A stretch of 22,372 bases of DNA from an uncultured Chroococcidiopsis sp. (GTDB taxonomy: Bacteria; Cyanobacteriota; Cyanobacteriia; Cyanobacteriales; Chroococcidiopsidaceae). Numbering within the stretch: position 1 is the stretch's first letter; every line of letters begins with the position of its first letter. Made by a program: the position numbers and the translations under genes. Location: assembly GCA_964248365.1 (NCBI GenBank), contig CAXTYC010000009.1, positions 126,091-148,462 on the forward strand. Reading direction: 5' to 3'. The notes beneath the pieces were generated by a model. That model saw only the letters and a program-made list of their open reading frames with translations, did no database searches and had not been told where the DNA came from. Below, piece after piece: positions 513-17,371 of the stretch.

Positions 513-1542
513 ATGAATAACTTCGGTGAAAAAGTTAGCTTTATCTGGAGCGTTGCTGACTTAATCCGCGATACATTCAAACGCGGTAAATATCAGGATG
601 TCATCCTACCGCTGACCGTTCTGCGACGGCTTGACTGTGTGTTGCAGTCAACTAAAGCCCAAGTACTGGAAACCTACAATCAATACAAAGACAAGCTGGA
701 GAATTTAGATCCGCTACTGTGTAAAAAATCGGGATTTGCCTTTTACAATACATCAAAATACGACTTTGAAAAGCTTTTAGGCGATGCTCAGAATCTAACT
801 GCGAATTTGAACGCTTATATTAAGTGGCTTCAGCAGCAATATGCGTGAAGTGCTGGAGAAATTTGACTTTCCCAACACGATTAAGAAACTGGATGAAGCG
901 AACTTGCTCTACCTAGTGATGGAGAAGTTCAAAAATATTGACTTGCACCCCCATAAAGTTTCCAACCTGGAAATGGGGTATATCTTCGAGGAACTGATTC
1001 GCAAATTCAACAAAGCGCTGAATGAAAATCCTGGGGAACACTTCACCCCGCGAGAAGTGATTCACCTGATGGTTAGTCTGCTGTTATCCCAAGACAGGGA
1101 AGTTCTCAGCCAGGATTATATTACCCGCACCGTTTACGATCCCTACTGTGGTTCGGGGGGAATGCTGACGATTGCTAAAGAGCGCATTCAAGAAATTAAT
1201 CCAAATATCACTGTATTTTTGTTTGGGCAAGAAGTCAATCGGGAGACTTTCGCCGTGTGCAAGTCAGACTTGTACATGAAAAGCCTTGACGGTCGGGATG
1301 CGGAAAATCTAAAGTTTGGTAGTACCCTTTCTAATGACCAACACGCCGATAAGCAGTTTGATTATCTTCTAGCGAATCCTCCCTATGGCAAAGAATGGAA
1401 AGGAGATCAAACAGCAGTTAAAGCAGAAGCAGATAAGGTAGGAAGTCGCTTTAGTGCTCGTTTACCACGTATTAGTGACGGTCAGTTGCTGTTTCTTCAG
1501 CATATGCTCTCGCGGATGCACTCACCTGAAAAAGGCGAAAGT
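513..1542 (+). pseudogene. hsdM: Type I RM methyltransferase HsdM, frameshifted and C-terminally truncated
   Basis: HsdM N-terminus (FIWSVADLIRD...YQDVILPLTVLRRLD). Removing one extra G at about 824 restores YINGFSSNMREVLEKF and joins ORFs 513..848 and 841..2139. Motifs GEHFTPREV, DPYCGSGGML (motif I) and NPPY (motif IV) are present. HsdM similarity stops after QHMLSRMHSPEKG. Confidence 0.9.
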
Positions 1543-2139
1543 ATGTTACTTAAACGAATTGCCAATGTTCGCTATGGACTAGGACAACCCCCTGCTGAAA
1601 TTGCTGATGGTACTTGCTTAATTCGGGCTACAAACATCAAAAGTGGTTTTATATCTGATGAAGGAATGCTTTATGTTGACCCTAACGAAGTGCCTGAAAG
1701 TAGGAATGCAATTTTATCTTTAGGAGAAATCATTGTTGTGCGGAGTGGAGCATACACAGGAGATTCGGCAATAATACCCCTGAAGTATGCAGGTGCTATC
1801 GCTGGTTACGATATGGTTTTAGCTATCAAAAAAGGGGTTAATTCTTTTTTCGCGTGGCAAATTTTATCTCCTGAAGTGCGTGATTTGCAATTTGGCTTTC
1901 ATCAACTAAGAGCAGCACAGCCTCACTTAAATGCAGAAGAATTAAGAGAAACAATTGTTGTTGTTCCGCCAATTGATGAACAAAAAGCGATCGCCTCTTT
2001 CCTCGATCACGAAACCACCAAAATCGATGCCCTCATTGCCAAAATCCGCACAGGTATAGAGCAGCTGAAAGAATACCGCACCGCCCTCATCTCATCTGCT
2101 GTAACAGGCAAAATAGATGTCCGCGACGAGGTGAAATGA
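1543..2139 (+). pseudogene. hsdS: C-terminal half of type I RM specificity subunit HsdS (one TRD plus conserved region), fused in frame to truncated HsdM
   Basis: TRD-like IRATNIKSG...GEIIVVRSGA...AAQPHLNAEEL followed by the HsdS conserved helix PPIDEQKAIASFLDHETTKIDALI...LKEYRTALISSAVTGKIDVR. Confidence 0.85.
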
Positions 2140-2200
2140 CGCAGCCGATTTATTTTTCAGAACACGCCAAACTATAAATGCAGCTACGTGGTGCAAGATC
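2136..2200 (+). pseudogene. Remnant of DUF4258-like (RelE/BrnT-like toxin fold) gene
   Basis: ATG overlaps the hsdS stop (ATGA 2136-2139). Reads MTQPIYFSEHAKL*MQLRGA, matching the DUF4258-type N-terminal pattern FSxHAxxxMxxRG, with TAA at 2175 and truncation. Confidence 0.55.
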
Positions 2201-2229
2201 TAAGTTGATAGACGTGCCGAGGAATAGCA

Positions 2230-2808
2230 ATGAACGCGCTCACACTAAATCTCCACTCAATGGGAGAACCCACCGACGAGCAATTTGAGCAAATAGCCGC
2301 CACTAACCAAAACCTACGGCTAGAGCGCACAGCAGGGGGAGAATTAGTTATCATGCCACCCACAGGCGGAGAAACCGGAGAACGTAACCTAGATATAGAA
2401 GGGCAAATCTGGCTTTGGAACCGTCAAAATCGGCTGGGGAGGGCTTTTAATTCCTCTACAGGTTTCAAGTTGCCAAATGGCGCAACCCGCTCCCCTGACG
2501 CTTCCTGGGTGGCTCAGGCGCGATGGGATGCTTTAACTCCTCAGCAGCGAAAGAAATTTCCGCCTCTGTGTCCAGATTTTGTAGTTGAACTTCTCTCGGA
2601 AACCGACGATTTAGAAGAAACTCAAGCCAAGATGCAAGAGTATTTAGATAATGGGATTCGTTTAGGTTGGTTAATCAATCCAACAACTCAACAAGTAGAG
2701 ATTTATCTACGCGATCGCCCTATTGAAGTTTTACAATCTCCTACCACTTTATCAGGAGAAGACGTACTGCCAGGATTTGTCTTAGACTTGCAATTAATTT
2801 TTAGTTAA
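2230..2808 (+). CDS. Uma2 family (DUF820) PD-(D/E)XK endonuclease-like protein, 192 aa
   Basis: LERTAGGELVIMPPTGGETG, FNSSTGFKLPNGATRSPDASW and PLCPDFVVEL are hallmark cyanobacterial Uma2 motifs. Confidence 0.95.
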   Translation: MNALTLNLHSMGEPTDEQFEQIAATNQNLRLERTAGGELVIMPPTGGETGERNLDIEGQIWLWNRQNRLGRAFNSSTGFKLPNGATRSPDASWVAQARWDALTPQQRKKFPPLCPDFVVELLSETDDLEETQAKMQEYLDNGIRLGWLINPTTQQVEIYLRDRPIEVLQSPTTLSGEDVLPGFVLDLQLIFS

Positions 2809-2827
2809 ACAGCAATGGTAGACCCAA

Positions 2828-3007
2828 GGGCATTCCTAAATGATTCGTAAACCTCTATAGTTCTTAACTTTGCCTTCTAGCCTGCGGCAACGGCTTTGCA
2901 GTATGCGTCTTTGCGGTAGCCTAGCCTTCGGCAACGCTACGCGAACGGCAAGCCCTTCGGTCTACGTTAAAAAAAGTCTATTTCACAAATCAAATAGGAT
3001 CGCTATA
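2828..3007. mobile_element. MITE-like/composite dispersed repeat with imperfect terminal inverted repeats and nested small palindromic repeats
   Basis: Left end GGGCATTCCTAAATGATTCGTAAA (2828-2851) versus reverse complement of right end (2982-3005) TAGCGATCCTATTTGATTTGTGAA: 16/24 identical. Interior carries SDR-like GCCTTCGGCAACGC motifs. Confidence 0.5.
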
Positions 3008-3016
3008 GGGCAAACC

Positions 3017-3595
3017 ATGAACGCATTAATCTTAAATTTGCCTCCAATTCTCAAACTTACAGACGAGCAGTTTGAACAGCTAGCAGCTGCTAACCGAGAC
3101 TTGCGGCTTGAACTCACGGCTGAGGGAGAGTTAGTTATTATGCCACCTACCGGAGGAAACACGGGTAAACGCAATATAGATCTATCTTTTCAACTACAAG
3201 CCTGGAACCGTCAGAATCAATTAGGTGTTGCTTTCGACTCTTCCACTGCTTTTAGACTTCCCAACGGGGCGGAACGTTCTCCCGATGCTAGCTGGGTGAG
3301 ACAAGCAAGATGGGACGCACTGACACCAGAACAACAAGATACGTTCCCGCCGCTTTGTCCTGATTTTGTTGTAGAGTTGCGTTCTCGTACTGACAGCCTG
3401 GAAGAATTAAGAGCTAAGATGCGGGAATATCTAAATAATGGGTTGCAGCTAGGCTGGTTGATTGACCCCAAAACTAGGCAAGTAGAAATTTATCTACGCG
3501 ATCGCCCCATTGAAGTTTTACAATCTCCCACCACTTTATCAGGAGAAGACGTACTGCCAGGATTTGTCTTAGACTTGCAATTAATTTTTAGTTAA
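3017..3595 (+). CDS. Uma2 family (DUF820) endonuclease-like protein, 192 aa
   Basis: Same motifs and length as 2230..2808. The likely start is ATG 3017 (MNALILNL); the upstream ORF-track extension runs through the repeat element. Confidence 0.93.
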   Translation: MNALILNLPPILKLTDEQFEQLAAANRDLRLELTAEGELVIMPPTGGNTGKRNIDLSFQLQAWNRQNQLGVAFDSSTAFRLPNGAERSPDASWVRQARWDALTPEQQDTFPPLCPDFVVELRSRTDSLEELRAKMREYLNNGLQLGWLIDPKTRQVEIYLRDRPIEVLQSPTTLSGEDVLPGFVLDLQLIFS

Positions 3596-3598
3596 ACA

Positions 3599-6569
3599 AT
3601 GGTAGATACATCGGAAAAAAACTTTGAGGCAACAATTGAACAAAGCCTTTTAGCCAATGGCTACCGCAAACGCGATCCTAAAGACTACGATCGCTCGCTT
3701 TGCCTCATCCCTAATGATGTGTTTGACTTTATCTATGCTACCCAGCCGCAGGAATGGGAAAAATTTCAGCAGCAGGAGGGTGATGAAGCCAAGCAGAAAT
3801 TATTACAACGCCTAATGCAGCAGGTGCGCGATCGCGGTACTCTAGAAGTTTTACGCAAAGGTATCAAAGCTAACGGTAGTAGCTTCAAACTGAGTTATTT
3901 CCGTCCCGTTAGCGGTTTAAATGAAGAACTCCAAAAACTCTACCAAGGCAACTTTTTTACCATCGTTCGCCAACTGAAATACAGCCAGAAGAATGAAAAC
4001 AGCCTAGACTTAGGCATTTTCCTGAATGGACTACCCATATTCACCGCCGAACTCAAAAACCCACTGGGGGGGCAAACTGTTGAGGATGCGATTAAACAAT
4101 ATCGCACATCCCGCGAAACACGCGAACCCTTATTTACAATTGGGCGCTGTTTATCCCACTTTGCCGTAGATCCAGATTTTGTTTATTTTACCACTCATCT
4201 TCAGGGATTCAAAACAAACTTCCTTCCCTTTAACCTGGGACGAAACTACGGCGCAGGTAATCCCCCTTCTGCTTTTGGCTTCGCTACTGCATACCTTTGG
4301 GAGCAAATTTGGTCGCCCGATAGCACACTTGACTTAATCCAAAATTTTGTGCAGTTGGTGGAAGAAGAAGACGAAAAAGACAGAAAGACTGGTAAAAAGA
4401 TCTCGGTTTTCCCCCGTTACCATCAACTCGATGCCGTCCGCCGTTTAGTAGCTGATGCGCGTAATAAAGGCACAGGACAGCGTTATTTAATTCAGCATAG
4501 TGCAGGCAGTGGTAAGAGTAAATCGATTTCCTAGTTAGCGCATCAGTAGCAACTTTACACGGTACAGACGATCGCAGGATTTTTGATTCGGTTATTGTGA
4601 TTAGCGATCGCCGTCAGCTAGACAGCCAGCTTCAACGCGATGTACGCTCCTTTGCTCAAATTGTGGGTGTAGTGGAAAACATTGACCAGACTTCCCGCCA
4701 GCTGAAGCAAGCACTAGAAGAAGGCAAAAATATTATCGTCACCACGCTGCAAAAATTCTCTGTGATTGTCGATCAAATAAGTCAACTTTCGGGAAATCGC
4801 TTTGCAGTCATTATCGATGAAGCTCACTCCTCCCAAACTGGAGAAAGCGCCAAAAAACTTAAAGCTGTACTTAGCGCTACCAGCCTAGAAGCTGCCGAAC
4901 AAGAAGAAGTCGAAGCAGAAGATTTAGAAGATCGCGTCGTAGCAGAAGCGAGAAAGCGAGGTAGGTTGCCCAATTTGAGCTACTTTGCCTTTACCGCTAC
5001 GCCAAAGCCAAAAACCTTGGAATTGCTTGGCACAGTTCATCCCAATGGCAATTATACACCTTTTAGCCTTTATACAATGCGTCAGGCGATCGAGGAAAAA
5101 TTTATTCTCGATGTCTTAAATAACTACACTACCTATAAAACCTACTTTAGCTTACTCAAAACCGTTGAAGACGACCCCCGCTACGACCGTGCGAAAGCAA
5201 ATACTCTGCTCAAATGGTTTGTGGATTTACACGAACACGGGATCGAGCGGAAAGTTGCTATTATGGTCGAACACTTTGCCCAACACGTTGCTAACCAAAT
5301 TGGCGGTAAAGCTAAGGCAATGATTGTCACGCGATCGCGTCTTCATGCAGTTCGCTACAAATTGGCAAGCGATCGCTATTTAAAAGATAAAGGCTATCCC
5401 TACAAAACCCTAGTGGCATTTACCGGAAAAGTAAAAGACGGCATTGAATACAGCGAAACTGGGATGAATACCACCTCAGATGGTAAAAGCATTCCTGAAA
5501 AAGCAACAGCCAAGGCATTTAAACAAGATAAATACCGCTTTTTGATTGTCGCCAATAAATTTCAAACAGGATTCGATCAGCCGTTACTACATACGATGTA
5601 TGTGGATAAAAAGCTAGGTGGTGTAAATGCAGTGCAAACCCTCTCGCGGCTCAATCGCATACATCCAGGTAAAAATGACACAATGGTTCTCGACTTTGCC
5701 AACGAAGCTGACCAGATCCAAAAAGCATTTGAGGATTATTACGACCGGACAATCTTAAGCGAAGGCACTGATCCGAACTTACTATATGACCTACAAACGC
5801 AGTTAGGGGATTTCACTTTTACGACAGCGGCGATATAGATCGCTTCAGTGCGATTTATTTTGCTTCCAATGCAACCCAGGATAAATTACACGCTGCTTTA
5901 GATCCTGTGGTAGAACGATATAGACAAGCGATCGCCCCCACACAATTTGATTTTCGCGGTAAACTAAAAGACTACGAGCGCCTCTATGCCTTTTTGTCAC
6001 AAGTCGTTCCCTTCGCTGATGCCGAGCTAGAGAAATTTTACGAATTTGCTCGGCATTTATCGCGTAAGCTACCAGTCTCTAGCTCGCGGCTTCCTGCCGA
6101 AATTCAACAACATATTGAATTAGATTCCTACCGCATTCAACAAACCAATAGCGGCAAAATTCAACCCAAACGCGGTACTAAGCAATTAGACCCAATTGGC
6201 TCAAAAGGGGCAAGTATGCCTACACCAGAAACACTAGAGCCACTATCGCAAATTATTGGGCAGCTAAACCAGCGTTTCGGTACAGATTTGGGTGATGATG
6301 ACAAGGTATTTATCGAGCAACTTGAGACAAAGTTAGATCGCAGCGACACGCTAAAGGCTAGTATTCGGGTTAATTCGCCTCAAAATGCCCTCCTGACTTT
6401 TAACAACGTGGTCAATGACCAGATGCAGGAAATGATCGAGACGAATTTCAAGTTCTACAAGCAAGTCAACGACGATCCTGAATTTGCCAAAGCTTTGCTA
6501 AATTGGCTGTTCCAAAGATACCTCGACCGAGCAGATAATCAACCTCATGAAGGATCTGAAGGTACTTGA
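3599..6569 (+). pseudogene. hsdR: Type I restriction endonuclease subunit HsdR, disrupted
   Basis: Nuclease motif DLGIFLNGLPIFTAELKN, Walker A HSAGSGKS, DEAH, FTATP and TGFDQP. Lesions: TGG>TAG at 4532-4534 (SIS-W-LAHQ), 1-nt deletion at about 4547, 1-nt deletion at about 5813. These split it into ORFs 3599..4534, 4597..5838 and 5907..6569. Confidence 0.93.
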
Positions 6570-11797: not shown

Positions 11798-12574
11798 ATG
11801 GAAACCTTACTAGGCACATTTTTGGCTGCATCCTTCTTTCTAGCAGCCTCTGGACTCAAGCTTGACCGAGAATATCAGCGTGGTGTCATCTTCCGACTAG
11901 GCAGAATTCAAGGCGTGAGAGGACCTGGGTTATACTGGATTTTACCTGTCTTAGACCAAAAGGCTCAAGTCGATATTCGCACCAAAACGGTGAATATAGA
12001 ACCACAAGAAACTGTGACTGCTGATAGTGTCACGATTAGAGTCAACGCTGTTCTCTATTACCGAATTCTCGATCCTTCAAAAGCTATTAACAAAGTTGAG
12101 AATTACGAATTAGCTGTTTACCAAACTGCTCTTACTACTCTTCGTAATGTCGTTGGTCAAAACATTTTAGATGATGTCCTGCAAAATCGTGATAAAATTA
12201 ATATCAAAGTGCAGGAAATTGTAGACGAAATTACCGAGCCTTGGGGCATTGTTATTGAGCGGGTGGAAATGAAAGATGTAGAAATTCCCCCAGCAATGCA
12301 ACGAGCAATGGCGAAAGAAGCAGAAGCAATTCGAGAAAAACGCGCTCGGATAATTAAAGCCGCAGCCGAACAAGAAGCCTCGGCTAAGTTAGCAGAAGCC
12401 TCGCAAATGATTATGAAAAATCCAGCGGCTTTGGAATTACGGCGACTGCAAATGTTAACAGAAGTTGGCGCGGAAAATAATACTACCACAATAGTTATGA
12501 TGCCATCTGATTTTATGAATTTGGCTAAGAAATTATCAGATTCAATTTCAGATAATCATCAAAATCCAAAGTAG
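11798..12574 (+). CDS. SPFH/Band 7 stomatin-like (slipin) protein, 258 aa
   Basis: EYQRGVIFRLGR...GPGLYWILP, TLRNVVG, WGIVIERVEMKDV and AMAKEAEAIREKRARII are stomatin family motifs. Confidence 0.95.
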   Translation: METLLGTFLAASFFLAASGLKLDREYQRGVIFRLGRIQGVRGPGLYWILPVLDQKAQVDIRTKTVNIEPQETVTADSVTIRVNAVLYYRILDPSKAINKVENYELAVYQTALTTLRNVVGQNILDDVLQNRDKINIKVQEIVDEITEPWGIVIERVEMKDVEIPPAMQRAMAKEAEAIREKRARIIKAAAEQEASAKLAEASQMIMKNPAALELRRLQMLTEVGAENNTTTIVMMPSDFMNLAKKLSDSISDNHQNPK

Positions 12575-12610
12575 GGTGCGTTAGGTGCTTATGCACCGTA
12601 ACGCACCTAC
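12571..12610. repeat. GTAG-type REP palindrome overlapping the SPFH stop codon
   Basis: GTAGGGTGCGTTA-GGTGC-TTAT-GCACC-GTAACGCACCTAC nested hairpin. Confidence 0.75.
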
Positions 12611-12621
12611 AGTTTAATCAT

Positions 12622-12663
12622 GTAAAAATCATAACAAACAGCAATTAAGATTACCTGTAGGAT
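12622..12663 (+). promoter_or_regulatory. Putative NtcA-activated promoter of cynS
   Basis: GTA-AAAATCAT-AAC (12622-12635; one mismatch to GTA-N8-TAC), exactly 22 nt, then TAGGAT (12658-12663, TAN3T -10 box). Confidence 0.65.
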
Positions 12664-12698
12664 GAATGTCTAAGGAGCAATTTTTGGAGTAAATTAAT

Positions 12699-13136
12699 AT
12701 GCTACCAGACATTACTGAAAAACTTTTAGCAGCAAAGAAAGAGCAAAGTGTAAGTTTCGCAGACTTAGAAAAAGCTGTAGGCAGAGATGAAGTTTGGATT
12801 GCTGCTGTATTCTACCGTCAAGCTAGTGCTTCCGAAGATGAGGCACAAAAGATTTTGTCAGCTTTGGGATTGCCTTCACATCTAGCTACTCAATTAACAG
12901 ATTTTCCACTTAAAGGTAATAGTCCTGTAGTCCCAACTGATCCACTAATTTATCGCTTTTATGAAATCATGCAAGTGTATGGTATGCCACTAAAAAGCGT
13001 GATTCATGAAAAGTTTGGTGATGGTATTATGAGTGCAATAGACTTTACCTTAGATGTGGAAAAAGAAGAAGATCCCAAAGGCGATCGCGTTAGGATAATT
13101 ATGTCTGGCAAGTTCTTACCATATAAAAAGTGGTAA
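12699..13136 (+). CDS. cynS: Cyanate hydratase (cyanase), 145 aa
   Basis: [17 protein letters not shown]...[15 protein letters not shown]...GKFLPY cyanase signature. Confidence 0.97.
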
Positions 13137-13158: not shown

Positions 13159-13205
13159 GATCCCCCCTTTTGTTCCCCCCTTAAAAAAAGGGGTTAGGGG
13201 GGATC
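13159..13205. repeat. Palindromic cyanobacterial repeat / probable bidirectional terminator between convergent genes
   Basis: GATCCCCCC...CCCC-TTAAAAAAA-GGGG...GGGGGGATC inverted repeat. Confidence 0.6.
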
Positions 13206-14467
13206 TAAAATCTCTGTGCTAATTGGGGTAAACGTCCTCGCAAACCTGTCATTAATTGCAGGGCGTATTTTTTCACCGGATGAACTTGCTTTAATATCAA
13301 TAATCCCAAGCGACGCGCGATCACAACGGGCAAGAAATTATTAGAAAACACGCGATCGAGCAAATCAGTAAAACCTAAAATTGTCAAGTTCTCTTGCTTG
13401 CGCCAGCGTTCATAACGCTTGAGTACCTGCAAAGAGCCAATATCTTCCCCTTGATTATAAGCAGATTGTACCACTTGTGCCAACGCTGCTGCATCCCGAA
13501 TGCCCATATTTAATCCTTGTCCACCGACAGGATGACAGCAATGTGCAGCGTCACCAACTAGGGCAAGTCGGGGTGACACATAGCGATCGCTCTGCATCAG
13601 TTGGACTTGAAACACAAAGCGCGAGCCTTCTAGTTGCAATTCTCCCATTTGTTCGCCATATCTGCGCTTCAGTTCTGCTAAAAATTGCTCATCGTCCAAA
13701 GCGACTAATGCTTTCGCCTCTTCATGAGGTGCTGTCCAAACGATGCGGCAACGGTTCCCTGGAAGCGGTAAAATTGCAAATGGTCCACTAGACCAAAAAC
13801 GCTCGTAGGCGATATTGTTGTGGGGTTTTTCTGGTTTGACAAAGGCGACGATGCACGATTGCCAGTATTGCCAACCATGTGTTTTAATTCCAGCAGAAGA
13901 GCGAATACGCGATCGCGCTCCATCGGCTGCTACCAGCAACCTCGTGCGGATAGTTTGAGATTCACCCTCTATATTGAGCGATATTTCGACTCCATCGGGT
14001 TGATATCCAGTTTGCACCACTTCAGCCGGACATAGATATTTCACATTCGGACACTGGTGCATAAACTCCTGTAAGGGAGTTAACAACGCCTGGTGTTCTG
14101 CTACATATCCCAGCACATCTGTACCTAAATCGGTTGGTTGAAACTCCACCACACCAGGATAATCTGCATCTGACAGGCGAACAGAGCGAAAAGACTCAAT
14201 TTGGGGCAGAATTTTATCCCAGATCCCAATGCCCTCTAAAATGAGCTTGGATGACATATGTACAGCATAAGCTTGCCCTTTCATCGCCGCTACAGAATAG
14301 GGTTTTGCCTCAATCAACCCTACACTTAGCCCAGAATCTTTTAAAGCACAGGCAAGGGTTAAGCCGATAATACCACCCCCCACAATTGCTAGATCATAGT
14401 CAAAGCTGTTTTGGGGTGTAGTAGTGTGGGAGGGTGAAATAGTGCGATCTAGCTGCTCCAGTGCCAT
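13205..14467 (-). CDS. FAD-dependent hydroxylase, UbiH/COQ6 family, 420 aa
   Basis: IVGGGIIG (Rossmann fold), LLVAADGARS (DG motif) and LVGDAAHCCHPVGGQGLNMGIRD (GD motif). Confidence 0.93.
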   Translation of the reverse strand: MALEQLDRTISPSHTTTPQNSFDYDLAIVGGGIIGLTLACALKDSGLSVGLIEAKPYSVAAMKGQAYAVHMSSKLILEGIGIWDKILPQIESFRSVRLSDADYPGVVEFQPTDLGTDVLGYVAEHQALLTPLQEFMHQCPNVKYLCPAEVVQTGYQPDGVEISLNIEGESQTIRTRLLVAADGARSRIRSSAGIKTHGWQYWQSCIVAFVKPEKPHNNIAYERFWSSGPFAILPLPGNRCRIVWTAPHEEAKALVALDDEQFLAELKRRYGEQMGELQLEGSRFVFQVQLMQSDRYVSPRLALVGDAAHCCHPVGGQGLNMGIRDAAALAQVVQSAYNQGEDIGSLQVLKRYERWRKQENLTILGFTDLLDRVFSNNFLPVVIARRLGLLILKQVHPVKKYALQLMTGLRGRLPQLAQRF

Positions 14468-14544
14468 TGTTAACAGAATTTTTCAAAAATGATAGGAATA
14501 TTTACTTTCCTTCATTGTGACACGGATAGTTTTGGTGAGCCAGT

Positions 14545-14575
14545 GCGTAGGGCTTTGCCCAAGCTTCGGCATCGC
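14545..14575. mobile_element. 23-nt SDR5-like element inserted within a HIP1 site
   Basis: GCG[TAGGGCTTTGCCCAAGCTTCGGC]ATCGC; a second copy with one mismatch is at 15510-15540. Confidence 0.75.
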
Positions 14576-14597
14576 ACTGTAATCGAGTTTAGCCAAA

Positions 14598-14624
14598 CAA
14601 AAAACCCTGATGGAATATCAGGGC
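14598..14624 (-). terminator. Rho-independent terminator after small-protein gene 1
   Basis: Minus strand GCCCTGA-TATTCCA-TCAGGG-TTTTTT. Confidence 0.75.
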
Positions 14625-14721
14625 TAAATCATTTATTTGATGTAGAAGGTATTTGTGTAGTATCCGTAGCTTTTAGAGTTAGTAGTAAGCCTTGCGAATA
14701 TTTTGTGTGATTATTGTTTCT

Positions 14722-14865
14722 CTAACGATGACGGTAGTGGTGGGTGCGATGATGATGGGTGTGATGATGTCTAAGTGTTTTTGCTTGTGCTGCGCCTCCA
14801 AAGGAGATGGCTACAGGGGTAGCTAGAACTAGAGCTAGAAGTAAACCTTTAGCTAACTTATTCAT
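14722..14865 (-). CDS. Small secreted poly-His peptide, paralog 1 (47 aa; not in ORF track)
   Basis: Translates MNKLAKGLLLALVLATPVAISFGGAAQA-KTLRHHHTHHHRTHHYRHR*. Signal peptide is homologous to the three neighbouring genes and it shares their upstream motif. Confidence 0.8.
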   Translation of the reverse strand: MNKLAKGLLLALVLATPVAISFGGAAQAKTLRHHHTHHHRTHHYRHR

Positions 14866-14893
14866 GACATTGTGTGAAATCAACTACGACTAG

Positions 14894-14948
14894 AGTATGC
14901 AAAAACTACATGACAGCTTTGTGTCAGCTAGATAGAGTTTCTATGTCA
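14894..14948 (-). promoter_or_regulatory. Conserved 55-bp promoter/operator motif, copy 1
   Basis: TGACATAGAAA CTCTATCTAGC TGACACAAAGC TGTCATGTAGT TTTTGCATACT, 28 nt before the ATG. Confidence 0.75.
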
Positions 14949-15033
14949 GATTTGTAAAAGTAAGTAACACTTTGCCAAGTATTAAATATTTCTTGTGCAG
15001 TGATTAATTTGAAGAAATTTTAAGAGCGATCGC

Positions 15034-15063
15034 AAAAAAAACCCGCTGATTTTTCAGCAGGTT
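15034..15063 (-). terminator. Rho-independent terminator after small-protein gene 2
   Basis: Minus strand AACCTGCTGA-AAAA-TCAGCGGG-TTTTTTTT. Confidence 0.75.
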
Positions 15064-15136
15064 CACTTTATCCTATTAACTTCCACTTCCCCAAAATTAT
15101 ACTAATTACTCTTAGCTCTATCGCATAGTAAAGAGA

Positions 15137-15346
15137 CTATTTTTTCATAGCTGATTGGGCAGCATGAGTACTTTTTCTAGCAGCGTGTCTGGTATGCTTG
15201 GCACGATGATGTTTTTTAGGCGTAGCCATAGCGACTTTCTGCTGCTGATGAGTTCCAACTGTCTTAGCCCCAGCTGCATTTGCAGAGATGGCTACAGGGG
15301 CTGCAAAGAATAGAGACAGAAGTAGAGCTTTAGCAAACTTGTTCAT
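15137..15346 (-). CDS. Small secreted Lys/His/Arg-rich protein, paralog 2 (69 aa)
   Basis: Sec signal MNKFAKALLLSLFFAAPVAISANAAGA, then a cationic tail with no D/E. AAGGA RBS upstream. Confidence 0.85.
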   Translation of the reverse strand: MNKFAKALLLSLFFAAPVAISANAAGAKTVGTHQQQKVAMATPKKHHRAKHTRHAARKSTHAAQSAMKK

Positions 15347-15378
15347 GAGAAAATCCTTGTTAGTGCAGTTACCATTAC

Positions 15379-15433
15379 AGTATGCAATTTCTGTATGGCT
15401 GTTTTGTGTCAGATCTATAGAGTTTTTATGTCA
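15379..15433 (-). promoter_or_regulatory. Conserved 55-bp promoter/operator motif, copy 2
   Basis: TGACATAAAAA CTCTATAGATC TGACACAAAAC AGCCATACAGA AATTGCATACT, 32 nt before the ATG. Confidence 0.75.
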
Positions 15434-15509
15434 GATATGTAATAACGGTAAGATTTTGCAGATTATTCAATATTTTTAGTGTGTCGATTATTTGAAGGAA
15501 TTTGAGTGT

Positions 15510-15540
15510 GCGTAGAGCTTTGCCCAAGCTTCGGCATCGC
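15510..15540. mobile_element. 23-nt SDR5-like element inserted within a HIP1 site
   Basis: GCG[TAGAGCTTTGCCCAAGCTTCGGC]ATCGC; the paralogous position at 15026-15033 carries an empty HIP1. Confidence 0.75.
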
Positions 15541-15564
15541 ACAATAATACAGTCGAGCGAACAC

Positions 15565-15597
15565 AAAAAAAATAACCCGCTAAAAAAGTAGCGGGCT
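15565..15597 (-). terminator. Rho-independent terminator after small-protein gene 3
   Basis: Minus strand GCCCGCTA-CTTTT-TTAGCGGG-TTATTTTTTTT. Confidence 0.7.
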
Positions 15598-15665
15598 TGC
15601 TTTCACTTAGTTAAATTAATTTACCAATTTCGCCACTAACTCTTAACTAAGTGGGCGTGTTGAGA

Positions 15666-15872
15666 CTACCTCTTTACCGCCCGATTGGTAGCTTTATGTC
15701 TTCTACCATGATGTCTAACTCTATGTCTCTTAGCACGGGGTTTCCTAGTTGTAGCTTGAGCTACTTGCATCGGCTGGTTTCCAACTGTCTTGGCTTGAAC
15801 TGCGGGTGCACAGATGGCTACAGGGGTAGCAAAGAATAGAGACAGAAGTAAAGCTTTAGCAAACTTGTTCAT
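15666..15872 (-). CDS. Small secreted Arg/His-rich protein, paralog 3 (68 aa)
   Basis: Signal MNKFAKALLLSLFFATPVAICAPAVQA, then KTVGNQPMQVAQATTRKPRAKRHRVRHHGRRHK... Confidence 0.85.
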   Translation of the reverse strand: MNKFAKALLLSLFFATPVAICAPAVQAKTVGNQPMQVAQATTRKPRAKRHRVRHHGRRHKATNRAVKR

Positions 15873-15908
15873 TTGTAGTTACTCATTATTCAAAAACCTC
15901 ACTCCTTA

Positions 15909-15963
15909 AATATGCAAGCAATTCATGACAGCTATGTGTCACTCCTGTAGAGTTTTTATGTCA
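15909..15963 (-). promoter_or_regulatory. Conserved 55-bp promoter/operator motif, copy 3
   Basis: TGACATAAAAA CTCTACAGGAG TGACACATAGC TGTCATGAATT GCTTGCATATT, 36 nt before the ATG. Confidence 0.75.
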
Positions 15964-16030
15964 GTTTTGTCTTTGTACTAAACTGAGCTTCATCAGCTAA
16001 ATTTTTATTTCGATCAACTAATAAGAATAC

Positions 16031-16060
16031 AAAAAGCCCCACTATATAACATAGCGGGGC
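16031..16060 (-). terminator. Probable Rho-independent terminator after small-protein gene 4
   Basis: Minus strand GCCCCGCTAT-GTTAT-ATAGTGGGC-TTTTT. Confidence 0.6.
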
Positions 16061-16161
16061 TAAATGATATTATGTTTTGTTAAGGGCTACCAAAACAAAT
16101 TTTCTATGCAACTAGGTGTCTATCAGCTGTTTGGATAGCAAAAAGACTACTTGTTTGTACT

Positions 16162-16479
16162 TCATTTTGGAGAAGCGGTTGGTGATGCAGCAGGAGAACT
16201 ACTTGGTGACGCGCTAGAAGAAGGAGAAGCGGTTGGTTTTGTAGTAGAAGTGTGCTTTCCAGAACTTGTGGTTGATTTCTTTTTGGTAGAATGATGTCTA
16301 GAATTATGTTTTTTAGGTTTGGTAGTTGTGGCTTGAGCTACTTGTGTGGATTTGTGAGTAGTAGACTGGGCTTTCTGTTGCTGGTTCGTAAGTTGCTTTG
16401 CCTGAACTGTAGGTGCAAATGTGGCGACAGGTGCTGAAACTACAAGAGCTAAAAGTAAAGCTTTAGTGAATTTATTCAT
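16162..16479 (-). CDS. Small secreted Lys/His-rich protein with Ser/Thr/Pro tail, paralog 4 (105 aa)
   Basis: Signal MNKFTKALLLALVVSAPVATFAPTVQA, QKAQS/QVAQA repeats, KKHNSRHHSTKKK and an ASPSSS/ASPT tail. GAGGAG RBS upstream. Confidence 0.88.
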   Translation of the reverse strand: MNKFTKALLLALVVSAPVATFAPTVQAKQLTNQQQKAQSTTHKSTQVAQATTTKPKKHNSRHHSTKKKSTTSSGKHTSTTKPTASPSSSASPSSSPAASPTASPK

Positions 16480-16511
16480 GGGAAACTCCTCATCAAAGAA
16501 CCAATAATTAA

Positions 16512-16566
16512 ACTATGCAGGAAACCCATGACGCTCTTATGTCAATTCCATAAAGTTTTTATGTCA
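16512..16566 (-). promoter_or_regulatory. Conserved 55-bp promoter/operator motif, copy 4
   Basis: TGACATAAAAA CTTTATGGAAT TGACATAAGAG CGTCATGGGTT TCCTGCATAGT, 32 nt before the ATG. Confidence 0.75.
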
Positions 16567-16606: not shown

Positions 16607-17371
16607 CTAAGCCATACTGAGAAACATCAGCTGATCTGCCATCTCGAAGTTAGCGGTGACATTTTGCACATCATCTAAAGATTCTAGGGTATCGATTAAC
16701 TTGAGGAGCGATCGCGCCACGTCTGGATCGCTTACCTCGATGGTATTACCAGGAATCCAACGTAGTTCTACATCACTTACGTCAAAGCCTTTGTCTTTGA
16801 GTAGCTGGCTGAGGGTTTCCAGATTTCCCACATTGGTAAACACAATAACTGACTTACCATCCTCATCCTCAATTATTTCGTAAGACTCTGCACCGCCTTC
16901 TAGGGAAGCTTCTAACAATTCTTCTTCCTCAACAGCACCTGAGATTACTACTACGCCTTTTTGTGCAAACATCCAGCTAACACAGCCAGTTTCACCGAGA
17001 TTACCACCATTTTTACTAAAAGCTGCTCTTAAATCAGCCGCCGTGCGATTGCGGTTATCGGTAAGTGCTTCAATTAAGATAGCCACACCTCCTGCACCGT
17101 AACCTTCATAGCGAATAGATTCTAGAGCCGAAGATCCCTCGAACGTACCTGCACCTTTAGCGATCGCTCTTTCAATATTCTCATTTGGAATACCATTGGC
17201 TTTCGCCTTTTCTATCGCCGTTCGCAGTTGAAAATTTCCTGCTGGATCTGGTACTCCATTTCTCGCCGCCACAATAATCGCTCGTGACAATTGAGTGAAT
17301 GTCTTACCCTTTACCGCATCCACCCTTGCCTTCTGACGCTTTATATTAGCCCATTTACTATGTCCTGCCAT
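16607..17371 (-). CDS. yebC: YebC/PmpR family protein, 254 aa
   Basis: [37 protein letters not shown] and LDDVQNV family signatures. Confidence 0.96.

Follow-up and report, generated by a model that had tools for sequence, protein, structure and literature searches.

Genes and features of the locus

The subject of this report is a tandem array of four small genes, g1 to g4, on the minus strand of a 22,372-nucleotide stretch of DNA from an uncultured Chroococcidiopsis sp., hereafter called the window. The window lies within a 5.58-Mb source assembly labelled G000; other G and L numbers denote the genomes and loci that were compared with it. The four genes occupy the slot between a yebC/PmpR-family gene and a UbiH-like gene, and each is preceded by a box that we propose as a site for the OmpR-type regulator Rre3. 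The original prediction for this DNA had described four tandem minus-strand paralogs of 105, 68, 69 and 47 residues, and all four are indeed there. In the following list, bits and ranks refer to a matrix built from 13 non-window sites, described below.

16607..17371, minus strand: yebC/PmpR-family gene, upstream anchor of the slot (Pfam PF01709/PF20772 and NCBIfam NF001030 above cut-off)
16512..16566, minus strand: box 1, with four 11-bp-phased half-sites, a 10-nt spacer and a -10-like hexamer (16512-16517); predicted Rre3 site; 41.9 bits, rank 1
16162..16479, minus strand: g1, 105 residues, with predicted Sec signal 1-27, basic His/Lys core and Ser/Thr/Pro tail; mature charge about +13
16035..16061, minus strand: g1 terminator-like hairpin with T-run, folding z -6.2
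15909..15963, minus strand: box 2 with -10-like hexamer; 32.5 bits, rank 3
15666..15872, minus strand: g2, 68 residues, with predicted Sec signal and Arg/His-rich mature part; charge about +14
15574..15597, minus strand: g2 terminator-like hairpin with T-run, z -4.4
15508..15569, no strand: short intergenic repeat (D5), with an 82% identical copy at 14543-14604; the copies follow the g2 and g4 terminators
15370..15503, minus strand: g3 upstream block with box 3 (15379-15433; 26.0 bits, rank 4), homologous to 14885-15020 before g4
15137..15346, minus strand: g3, 69 residues, with predicted Sec signal and Lys/His/Ala-rich mature part; charge about +11
15039..15064, minus strand: g3 terminator-like hairpin with T-run, z -4.5
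14894..14948, minus strand: box 4 with -10-like hexamer; 39.0 bits, rank 2
14722..14865, minus strand: g4, 47 residues, ATG start, with predicted Sec signal followed by a His/Arg peptide of 19-21 residues that has 9 His
14603..14625, minus strand: g4 terminator-like hairpin with T-run, z -4.5
13205..14467, minus strand: FAD-dependent hydroxylase (UbiH-like), downstream anchor (NCBIfam NF005612 above cut-off)

Each gene is a unit of its own, with a 55-bp motif 83-91 nt before its ATG and its own hairpin and T-run, as had been proposed. The upstream homology claimed for the genes of 47 and 69 residues extends over about 135 bp (repeat families D2, D4 and D14) and is best read as a trace of tandem duplication. 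The N-termini align over 27-28 residues, with 13 invariant positions, as a common Sec-type signal (judged by pattern), and the mature parts contain no Asp, Glu or Cys. The claim that His, Lys and Arg dominate the mature parts holds for three proteins, in which these residues make up 0.40, 0.44 and 0.74 of the mature part, but not for the 105-residue protein, which is Ser/Thr-rich (0.23).

Neither the four proteins nor 59 members of their wider family have a Pfam or NCBIfam match above cut-off, in agreement with the earlier statement that no named family was recognised, and tblastn of G000 revealed no paralogue beyond the four. The intergenic repeat occurs in two copies in that whole genome and has no stable fold. 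A scan with the sigma-70 consensus gave promoters at a rate not above chance (6 against 5.4 expected). An RNA shared by the 3' untranslated regions was considered and rejected because 29 downstream regions have only A/T-rich 7-mers in common.

An unnamed family of predicted exported polycations

A profile of the four window proteins recovered 53 proteins among 1789 candidates, and a 59-sequence profile recovered 95 representatives of 50%-identity clusters (E <= 0.001) among 1.84 billion, the lowest few of which are doubtful. All named matches are cyanobacterial, and nearly all are labelled 'hypothetical'. Of 68 pattern matches on genome contigs, 21 proved to be family loci; yebC is upstream of 20 of these (one contig is cut) and a UbiH-like gene downstream of 16, and 10 of them carry the gene in two copies. 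The slot recurs in seven metagenome loci, yebC being visible in five. Homologues had been expected as conserved arrays between yebC and the ubiH-like gene: the slot is kept, but arrays are not usual, most carriers having one or two copies. In a tree of 29 promoter-plus-signal regions (190 columns, with 13 of 26 inner branches open), the window four group with the single copies L009 and L028 (97/95), away from the two Nostoc copies, and the four-copy array is therefore a local expansion.

The family is patchily distributed. It was found in 4 of 61 relatives (G000 included, a false match removed), at 3 of 30 yebC loci, with several yebC-ubiH junctions empty, and in 7 of 401 genomes across the class after removal of one false match; these counts are affected by the tendency of translated searches to miss weak family members. 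The matches discarded were a 143-residue protein in G010 and cytochrome f in G145. Distant members occur beyond the order, in G130, G143, G166 and G197. None of 66 pattern matches on viral contigs is a family member, and none was found on plasmids. Named carriers belong chiefly to terrestrial or lichen-type genera, habitat being judged by genus names; strains in culture among them include Calothrix PCC 7507, Tolypothrix PCC 7101 and Nostoc commune NIES-4072.

For protein properties, 132 sequences were taken, five having first been removed for frameshifts, excess length or doubtful status and two window proteins being counted twice; the pattern rule cut 125 of them. Every one of the 125 mature parts is net positive at pH 7.5, and the charge-hydropathy rule classes 124 as disordered. 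Asp and Glu together make up 1.8% of residues and are absent from 85 mature parts. His content ranges from 0 to 43% (median 12%), with none in 10 mature parts, less than 5% in 24 and at least 15% in 46; the median for Met is 0, and Cys occurs in 3. The proposal that homologues would keep both a basic and a His bias and open frames was thus borne out for the basic bias and the frames but not for His. The family profile prefers basic sequences, yet many genome-contig loci were matched by the signal alone and are also basic. In an AlphaFold model of g2, the sole predicted element is a signal helix at residues 3-15 (mean pLDDT 63, pTM 0.20). Lipoprotein and Tat export were discarded on inspection, there being no conserved Cys and no twin Arg.

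Ratios of nonsynonymous to synonymous substitution (dN/dS) in four small sets are 0.86, 0.28, 0.00 and 0.30 for the signal and, in the same order, 0.66, 1.27, 0.34 and 0.46 for the mature part, the 0.86 belonging to the Nostoc first-copy set and the 1.27 to the Nostoc second copy. Frames are open across homologues, and indels are in-frame only. Because of this dN/dS pattern and these indels, we infer that selection acts on composition rather than sequence. Together, the comparisons support the earlier picture of a diversified family of exported, disordered polycations under one promoter signal. The unnamed cyanobacterial family is real by sequence comparison, and g1 to g4 almost certainly encode real exported disordered proteins.

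Two variants of the slot deserve mention. At L033:1486-1839 (G409), a family-like signal after yebC is followed by Asn/Pro/His/Leu repeats, without a box. At L172 (G512) and G451:C238:645, a box stands in the same slot, 65 nt after yebC, before hairpins and a terminator and with no peptide open reading frame (ORF); a small RNA may have replaced the family gene there.

The promoter box

Sites for OmpR/PhoB-type activators are direct repeats with a 10-11 bp period that overlap the -35 region at a fixed distance from the -10 element. The window boxes have this layout. Alignment of 35 upstream regions, those caught by a regular expression that missed some second copies, gives four 6-bp half-sites with an 11-bp period and A-rich spacers, followed by 10 nt and a -10-like hexamer. 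Scores reach at least 20 bits in 33 of the 35, compared with a maximum of 4.5 in 175 shuffles, for a matrix that was seeded from window sites and trained on 13 of the 35 regions. The one clear exception is the atypical ORF in G409, where the kinase discussed below was not found (29 of 29 candidates scored).

A matrix of the four window sites gives only four strong sites in G000 (68-76 bits; next 15.8) and revealed no further target there, so that orthologous sites were needed. With the matrix from 13 non-window sites, which also had its seed in the window, the window boxes rank 1-4 in G000 (26-42 bits), the next site having 15.9 and column-shuffled matrices having maxima of 14.8-20.5. A strict form of the box has 45 matches in 37 of 121 genomes, versus 7 for a reversed control. 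Of 29 strict matches inspected, 5 precede HtrA, and several others are simple repeats or unexplained. The strict box occurs in 12 of 20 genomes with the kinase versus 2 of 12 without (Fisher p 0.028), an association that is weak because the kin are not independent and absence of the kinase is unreliable.

The proposed regulator and its known target

An operon of an OmpR-type regulator and a HAMP kinase lies directly upstream of a family gene in G166 and G130, and G000 has orthologues of both at C12:121051-122858, with two esterases, a split MprF-type lysyl-phosphatidylglycerol synthase and HtrA as neighbours. Several observations identify this pair with Hik10 (Slr0533) and Rre3 (Sll0649) of Synechocystis; published sources are cited here by PMC number. 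A published rre3 primer (PMC5559466) has an exact match in 1 of 251 genomes, G556. The protein at that place has 245 residues, including Cys38 and Cys74, which are listed together with primers for Rre3 in Tables 1-2 of PMC4361706, and it is the reciprocal best match of the G000 regulator (74%). In G556 the kinase gene is followed by an Slt-like ORF (judged by eye), which is the order of hik10 and slt in Synechocystis (PMC3514855). Among family models, the kinase scores highest with WalK, BaeS and MtrB, all under cut-off.

A degenerate box with one mismatch allowed occurs once in G556, before a 452-residue plus-strand HtrA (31.2 bits); the other two Deg paralogues score -7 and -14 bits. As the box gene is the only plus-strand Deg protease of that genome, it should be htrA (slr1204). 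According to PMC3195437 and PMC3264485, Hik10-Rre3 controls no other gene under salt and hyperosmotic stress. HtrA is also lower in the rre3 mutant under Cd (PMC5559466). The box extends to the regulator locus itself: among 4890 upstream regions of G000, the secreted esterase of the cluster ranks 5, the site just after the kinase 9 and htrA 40. Among 23 regulator loci, HtrA is present in 9, and 7 of these have the box at htrA (6-21 bits).

Like the Synechocystis system, G000 thus has an orthologous regulator and kinase and the same box at htrA. Since the same repeat stands at the four genes and at htrA, switch-on by Hik10-Rre3 is likely, and on these comparisons we consider Rre3 control of g1 to g4 probable. 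The box can be regarded as a well-supported candidate for the Rre3 site. Unlike here, htrA and three Cd-related genes are the only targets reported for the Synechocystis system, and the box is not described in the literature consulted. The family was not found in G556; work on the Synechocystis model could therefore not have revealed it.

Proposed role

In the scheme that we propose, salt, hyperosmotic or other envelope stress would lead Hik10 to phosphorylate Rre3, which would bind the array of phased half-sites, four per box, that covers the -35 region, and turn on transcription together with htrA. Four separate box-ORF-terminator units are seen in the window. Sec export and cleavage after Ala-x-Ala are predicted to release polycations of 19-78 residues, with a computed charge for the window four of +5 to +14 at pH 7.5 and +13 to +18 at pH 5. 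These may attach to acidic periplasmic proteins as they unfold and to anionic surfaces of the envelope, and curb aggregation, while HtrA would clear damaged proteins and tandem copies would raise the dose. By analogy with known chaperones, we slightly favor a protective, chaperone-like role, and we hold the judgement evenly balanced on whether the four genes are Rre3-induced, Asr-like electrostatic envelope protectants.

A number of points weigh against this scheme. The window genes are known here from their sequence, chaperone action is argued by analogy, and the exported peptides could be destined for the thylakoid lumen or the medium instead. His6-tagged Sll0649 gave no gel shift and no enrichment (1.05-fold) at the htrA promoter, which served as a negative control, with its phosphorylation state unstated in the part of the source consulted; the same work reports three other, Cd-related targets of Rre3 (PMC5559466), which cannot hold a full box because G556 has a single match. 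Differential RNA sequencing placed the htrA start (TU891) so as to leave a 122-nt leader before a 419-residue start, under ten conditions that exclude salt and sorbitol (PMC4195498). This start falls within half-site 4, and the one predicted from the -10 hexamer is about 23 nt further downstream. In G005 and G166 no box precedes HtrA, and the kinase is present in 35 of 61 relatives versus the family's 4. To these can be added the origin of the matrix described above, the derivation of four of the five strict HtrA matches from one family, the failure of window boxes 1-4 to meet the strict pattern without a mismatch, and the signal dN/dS of 0.86 in the Nostoc first-copy set.

Among the roles offered in the original prediction, an Asr-like one is the best fit by analogy. 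Ren et al. 2022 is said to be the original study on the Asr chaperone. Asr belongs to the RstB-RstA asr-samT circuit, with acid induction through RstAB/PhoBR, and its chaperone/aggregase activity depends on charge. The literature presents it as a disordered periplasmic chaperone with positive charge that helps to maintain outer-membrane integrity (PMC10746267, PMC13425233; further background in PMC10595154 and PMC12871917). Judged by pattern and model, the window proteins resemble Asr (NF033636/PF06392) in being small, with a Sec-type signal and a basic, disordered, His/Lys-rich mature chain. The promoters are also alike in having an OmpR-family regulator site, here a predicted one, over the -35 region; in asr, a PhoB box at -39 to -22 overlaps it (PMC9026648). 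A weak likeness extends to sequence, NF033636 being the family most often matched (14 of 59 members at E <= 0.1), and one Nostoc cluster has been automatically named 'Acid-shock protein'. The proteins are nonetheless not members of Asr: the best score is 26.1 against a 50-bit cut-off, and the window four have no match at E <= 1. They also differ from asr in having a promoter that points to Rre3 rather than RstAB/PhoBR, a regulator whose known inducer is salt or hyperosmotic stress and not acid, and tandem paralogues with separate promoters.

A second analogy is with the Spy/DegP arm of the Escherichia coli Cpx/Bae systems, in which a positively charged periplasmic chaperone and HtrA are under an OmpR-type system, as proposed here. 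Positive charge drives client capture by Spy, which is co-induced with DegP/HtrA (PMC8144458). Spy, however, is a folded helical cradle, whereas the window proteins are predicted to be foldless. By language-model features, the nearest named clusters are the His-rich small proteins BRANT (NF047414, PF28279), at 0.82-0.88, under the 0.9 threshold for a lead. Only 5 of 59 members match BRANT at E <= 0.1 (best 3e-4) and none of the window four does, and BRANT clusters are mostly from Pseudomonadota.

Alternative explanations

Under the same regulation, the peptides could be structural counter-ions, not chaperones, that neutralise or cross-link anionic polymers (lipopolysaccharide, peptidoglycan, sulfated or uronic sheath polysaccharide) when the cell loses water. 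This is unlikely but is the alternative that survives best: charge is the conserved trait, the hydrophobic residues suited to client binding are nearly absent from the window four (Trp, Phe, Leu and Ile together 0-5%), and an MprF-type synthase, likewise a source of positive charge at the envelope, adjoins rre3-hik10 in 10 of the 23 regulator loci. The preponderance of terrestrial and lichen-type carriers fits as well, though it depends on genus names for habitat, and the MprF genes lack the box in their own upstream regions.

Periplasmic buffering of metals or protons, in the manner of SilE/PcoE or Hpn, had been raised in the original prediction and would suit g4, with 9 His in about 20 residues, and the 46 members rich in His. 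SilE and PcoE have His and Met motifs along the whole chain. PcoE is a periplasmic, His-containing, disordered metal sponge under an OmpR-type system, and so is SilE (PMC5008109). Cadmium points the same way, as it induces htrA and cells mutated in Rre3 are sensitive to it (PMC5559466, PMC4877387); for acid, the table of one review has a plus for htrA induction at low pH (PMC6789579), whereas another review has the deg genes unresponsive to acid stress (PMC4877387). Unlike SilE/PcoE, the family is strongly basic, which disfavors cation binding, its Met is nearly absent and its His optional, and yebC and the UbiH-like gene flank the slot instead of a metal-resistance cluster or efflux operon. 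Positive charge and disorder are kept and His is not; a metal sponge is therefore improbable, and the rarity of His, Met and Cys in many members tells against buffering as the core role of the family.

More doubtful still is a feedback function, in which the exported peptides or their conserved leaders would tune the system through the periplasmic loop of Hik10. In its favor, RstB-RstA signalling is strengthened by Asr (PMC13425233), three of the four dN/dS sets show a leader under tighter conservation than the mature part, and family genes adjoin the regulator operon in G166 and G130; against this, most kinase-bearing genomes lack the family, a specific protein contact is hard to reconcile with mature sequences so variable, and four copies suggest dose rather than a signal. 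Secreted antimicrobial or competition peptides, including the histatin-like action proposed earlier, are very improbable despite the pattern of conserved leader and hypervariable cationic core, the tandem expansion and the mature dN/dS of 1.27 in the Nostoc second copy, in view of an amphipathic moment not above shuffles (mean z 0.33; window four -0.7 to +0.7), the absence of Trp and near absence of large hydrophobic residues, the lack of exporter, immunity or modification genes nearby and of family members on plasmids or viral contigs, and a promoter held in common with a quality-control protease.

Broader implications

No publication describing the family or the box was found in the literature searched, most subscription journals being outside its scope. 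The box would supply a specific DNA site and a list of targets for Hik10-Rre3, a salt/osmotic sensor pair so far known chiefly from a single target. Our comparison also adds an unnamed and often unannotated family of exported polycations of 47-120 residues that may shield the envelope of terrestrial cyanobacteria in water loss, and it suggests that disordered chaperones of the Asr type evolved outside enterobacteria, with another signal in control.

Other boxed genes and neighbouring features

Several further genes stand behind the box. At G000:C12:115038-120657 (L077), an esterase, a hydrolase, the split MprF-type synthase and a second esterase adjoin rre3-hik10, and within G000:C12:115038-115153 two boxes stand back to back, one facing a region without an ORF. 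At L158, L165, L199, L175 and L075:8909 (minus strand), the box precedes a membrane peptide of 32-48 residues with a Y/C-L-F-P end, directly after hik10 in four genomes; at G000:C12:123032 the box is kept but the peptide ORF is not intact. By analogy with MgrB or SamT, this peptide is a candidate feedback modulator.

Boxes also lie directly before short terminator-ended units at G000:C2:22109 (minus strand), G000:C8:150198-150330 (plus strand), L132, L141, L142, L151 and L198. These contain what we take to be a Yfr1-like seed motif and are candidate Rre3-controlled Yfr1 paralogues (background on Yfr1 in PMC6974561). Rfam gave no match for four such loci tested, and a box is missing from the canonical Yfr1-like gene at G000:C16:8262. 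Elsewhere, a different secreted protein of 59 residues, rich in His, Trp and Arg, stands behind a box at L126 (G436), and secreted helix-hairpin-helix (ComEA-like) proteins have one at L074:1735-2103, L072:8583-8954 and L075:6322-6708 (minus strand), one of them with the signal peptide of the cationic family.

We tentatively suggest, as a broader possibility that we rate below even, that Hik10-Rre3 is an ancient, class-wide regulator of envelope stress whose regulon is convergent with RstAB/asr-samT/OmrB. Such a regulon would comprise the polycations, a membrane micro-peptide encoded after hik10 and acting back on the kinase, small RNAs with a Yfr1 seed as repressors of envelope genes, HtrA and an esterase linked to MprF, and drought-exposed lineages would keep and multiply the polycation genes as envelope hydrophilins.

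Elsewhere in the window, positions 513-6569 hold type I restriction-modification genes, apparently split into several ORFs, between which lie two Uma2-like genes (names by inspection). At 11798-13136, an SPFH/band-7 gene and then cyanate hydratase converge on the UbiH-like gene.

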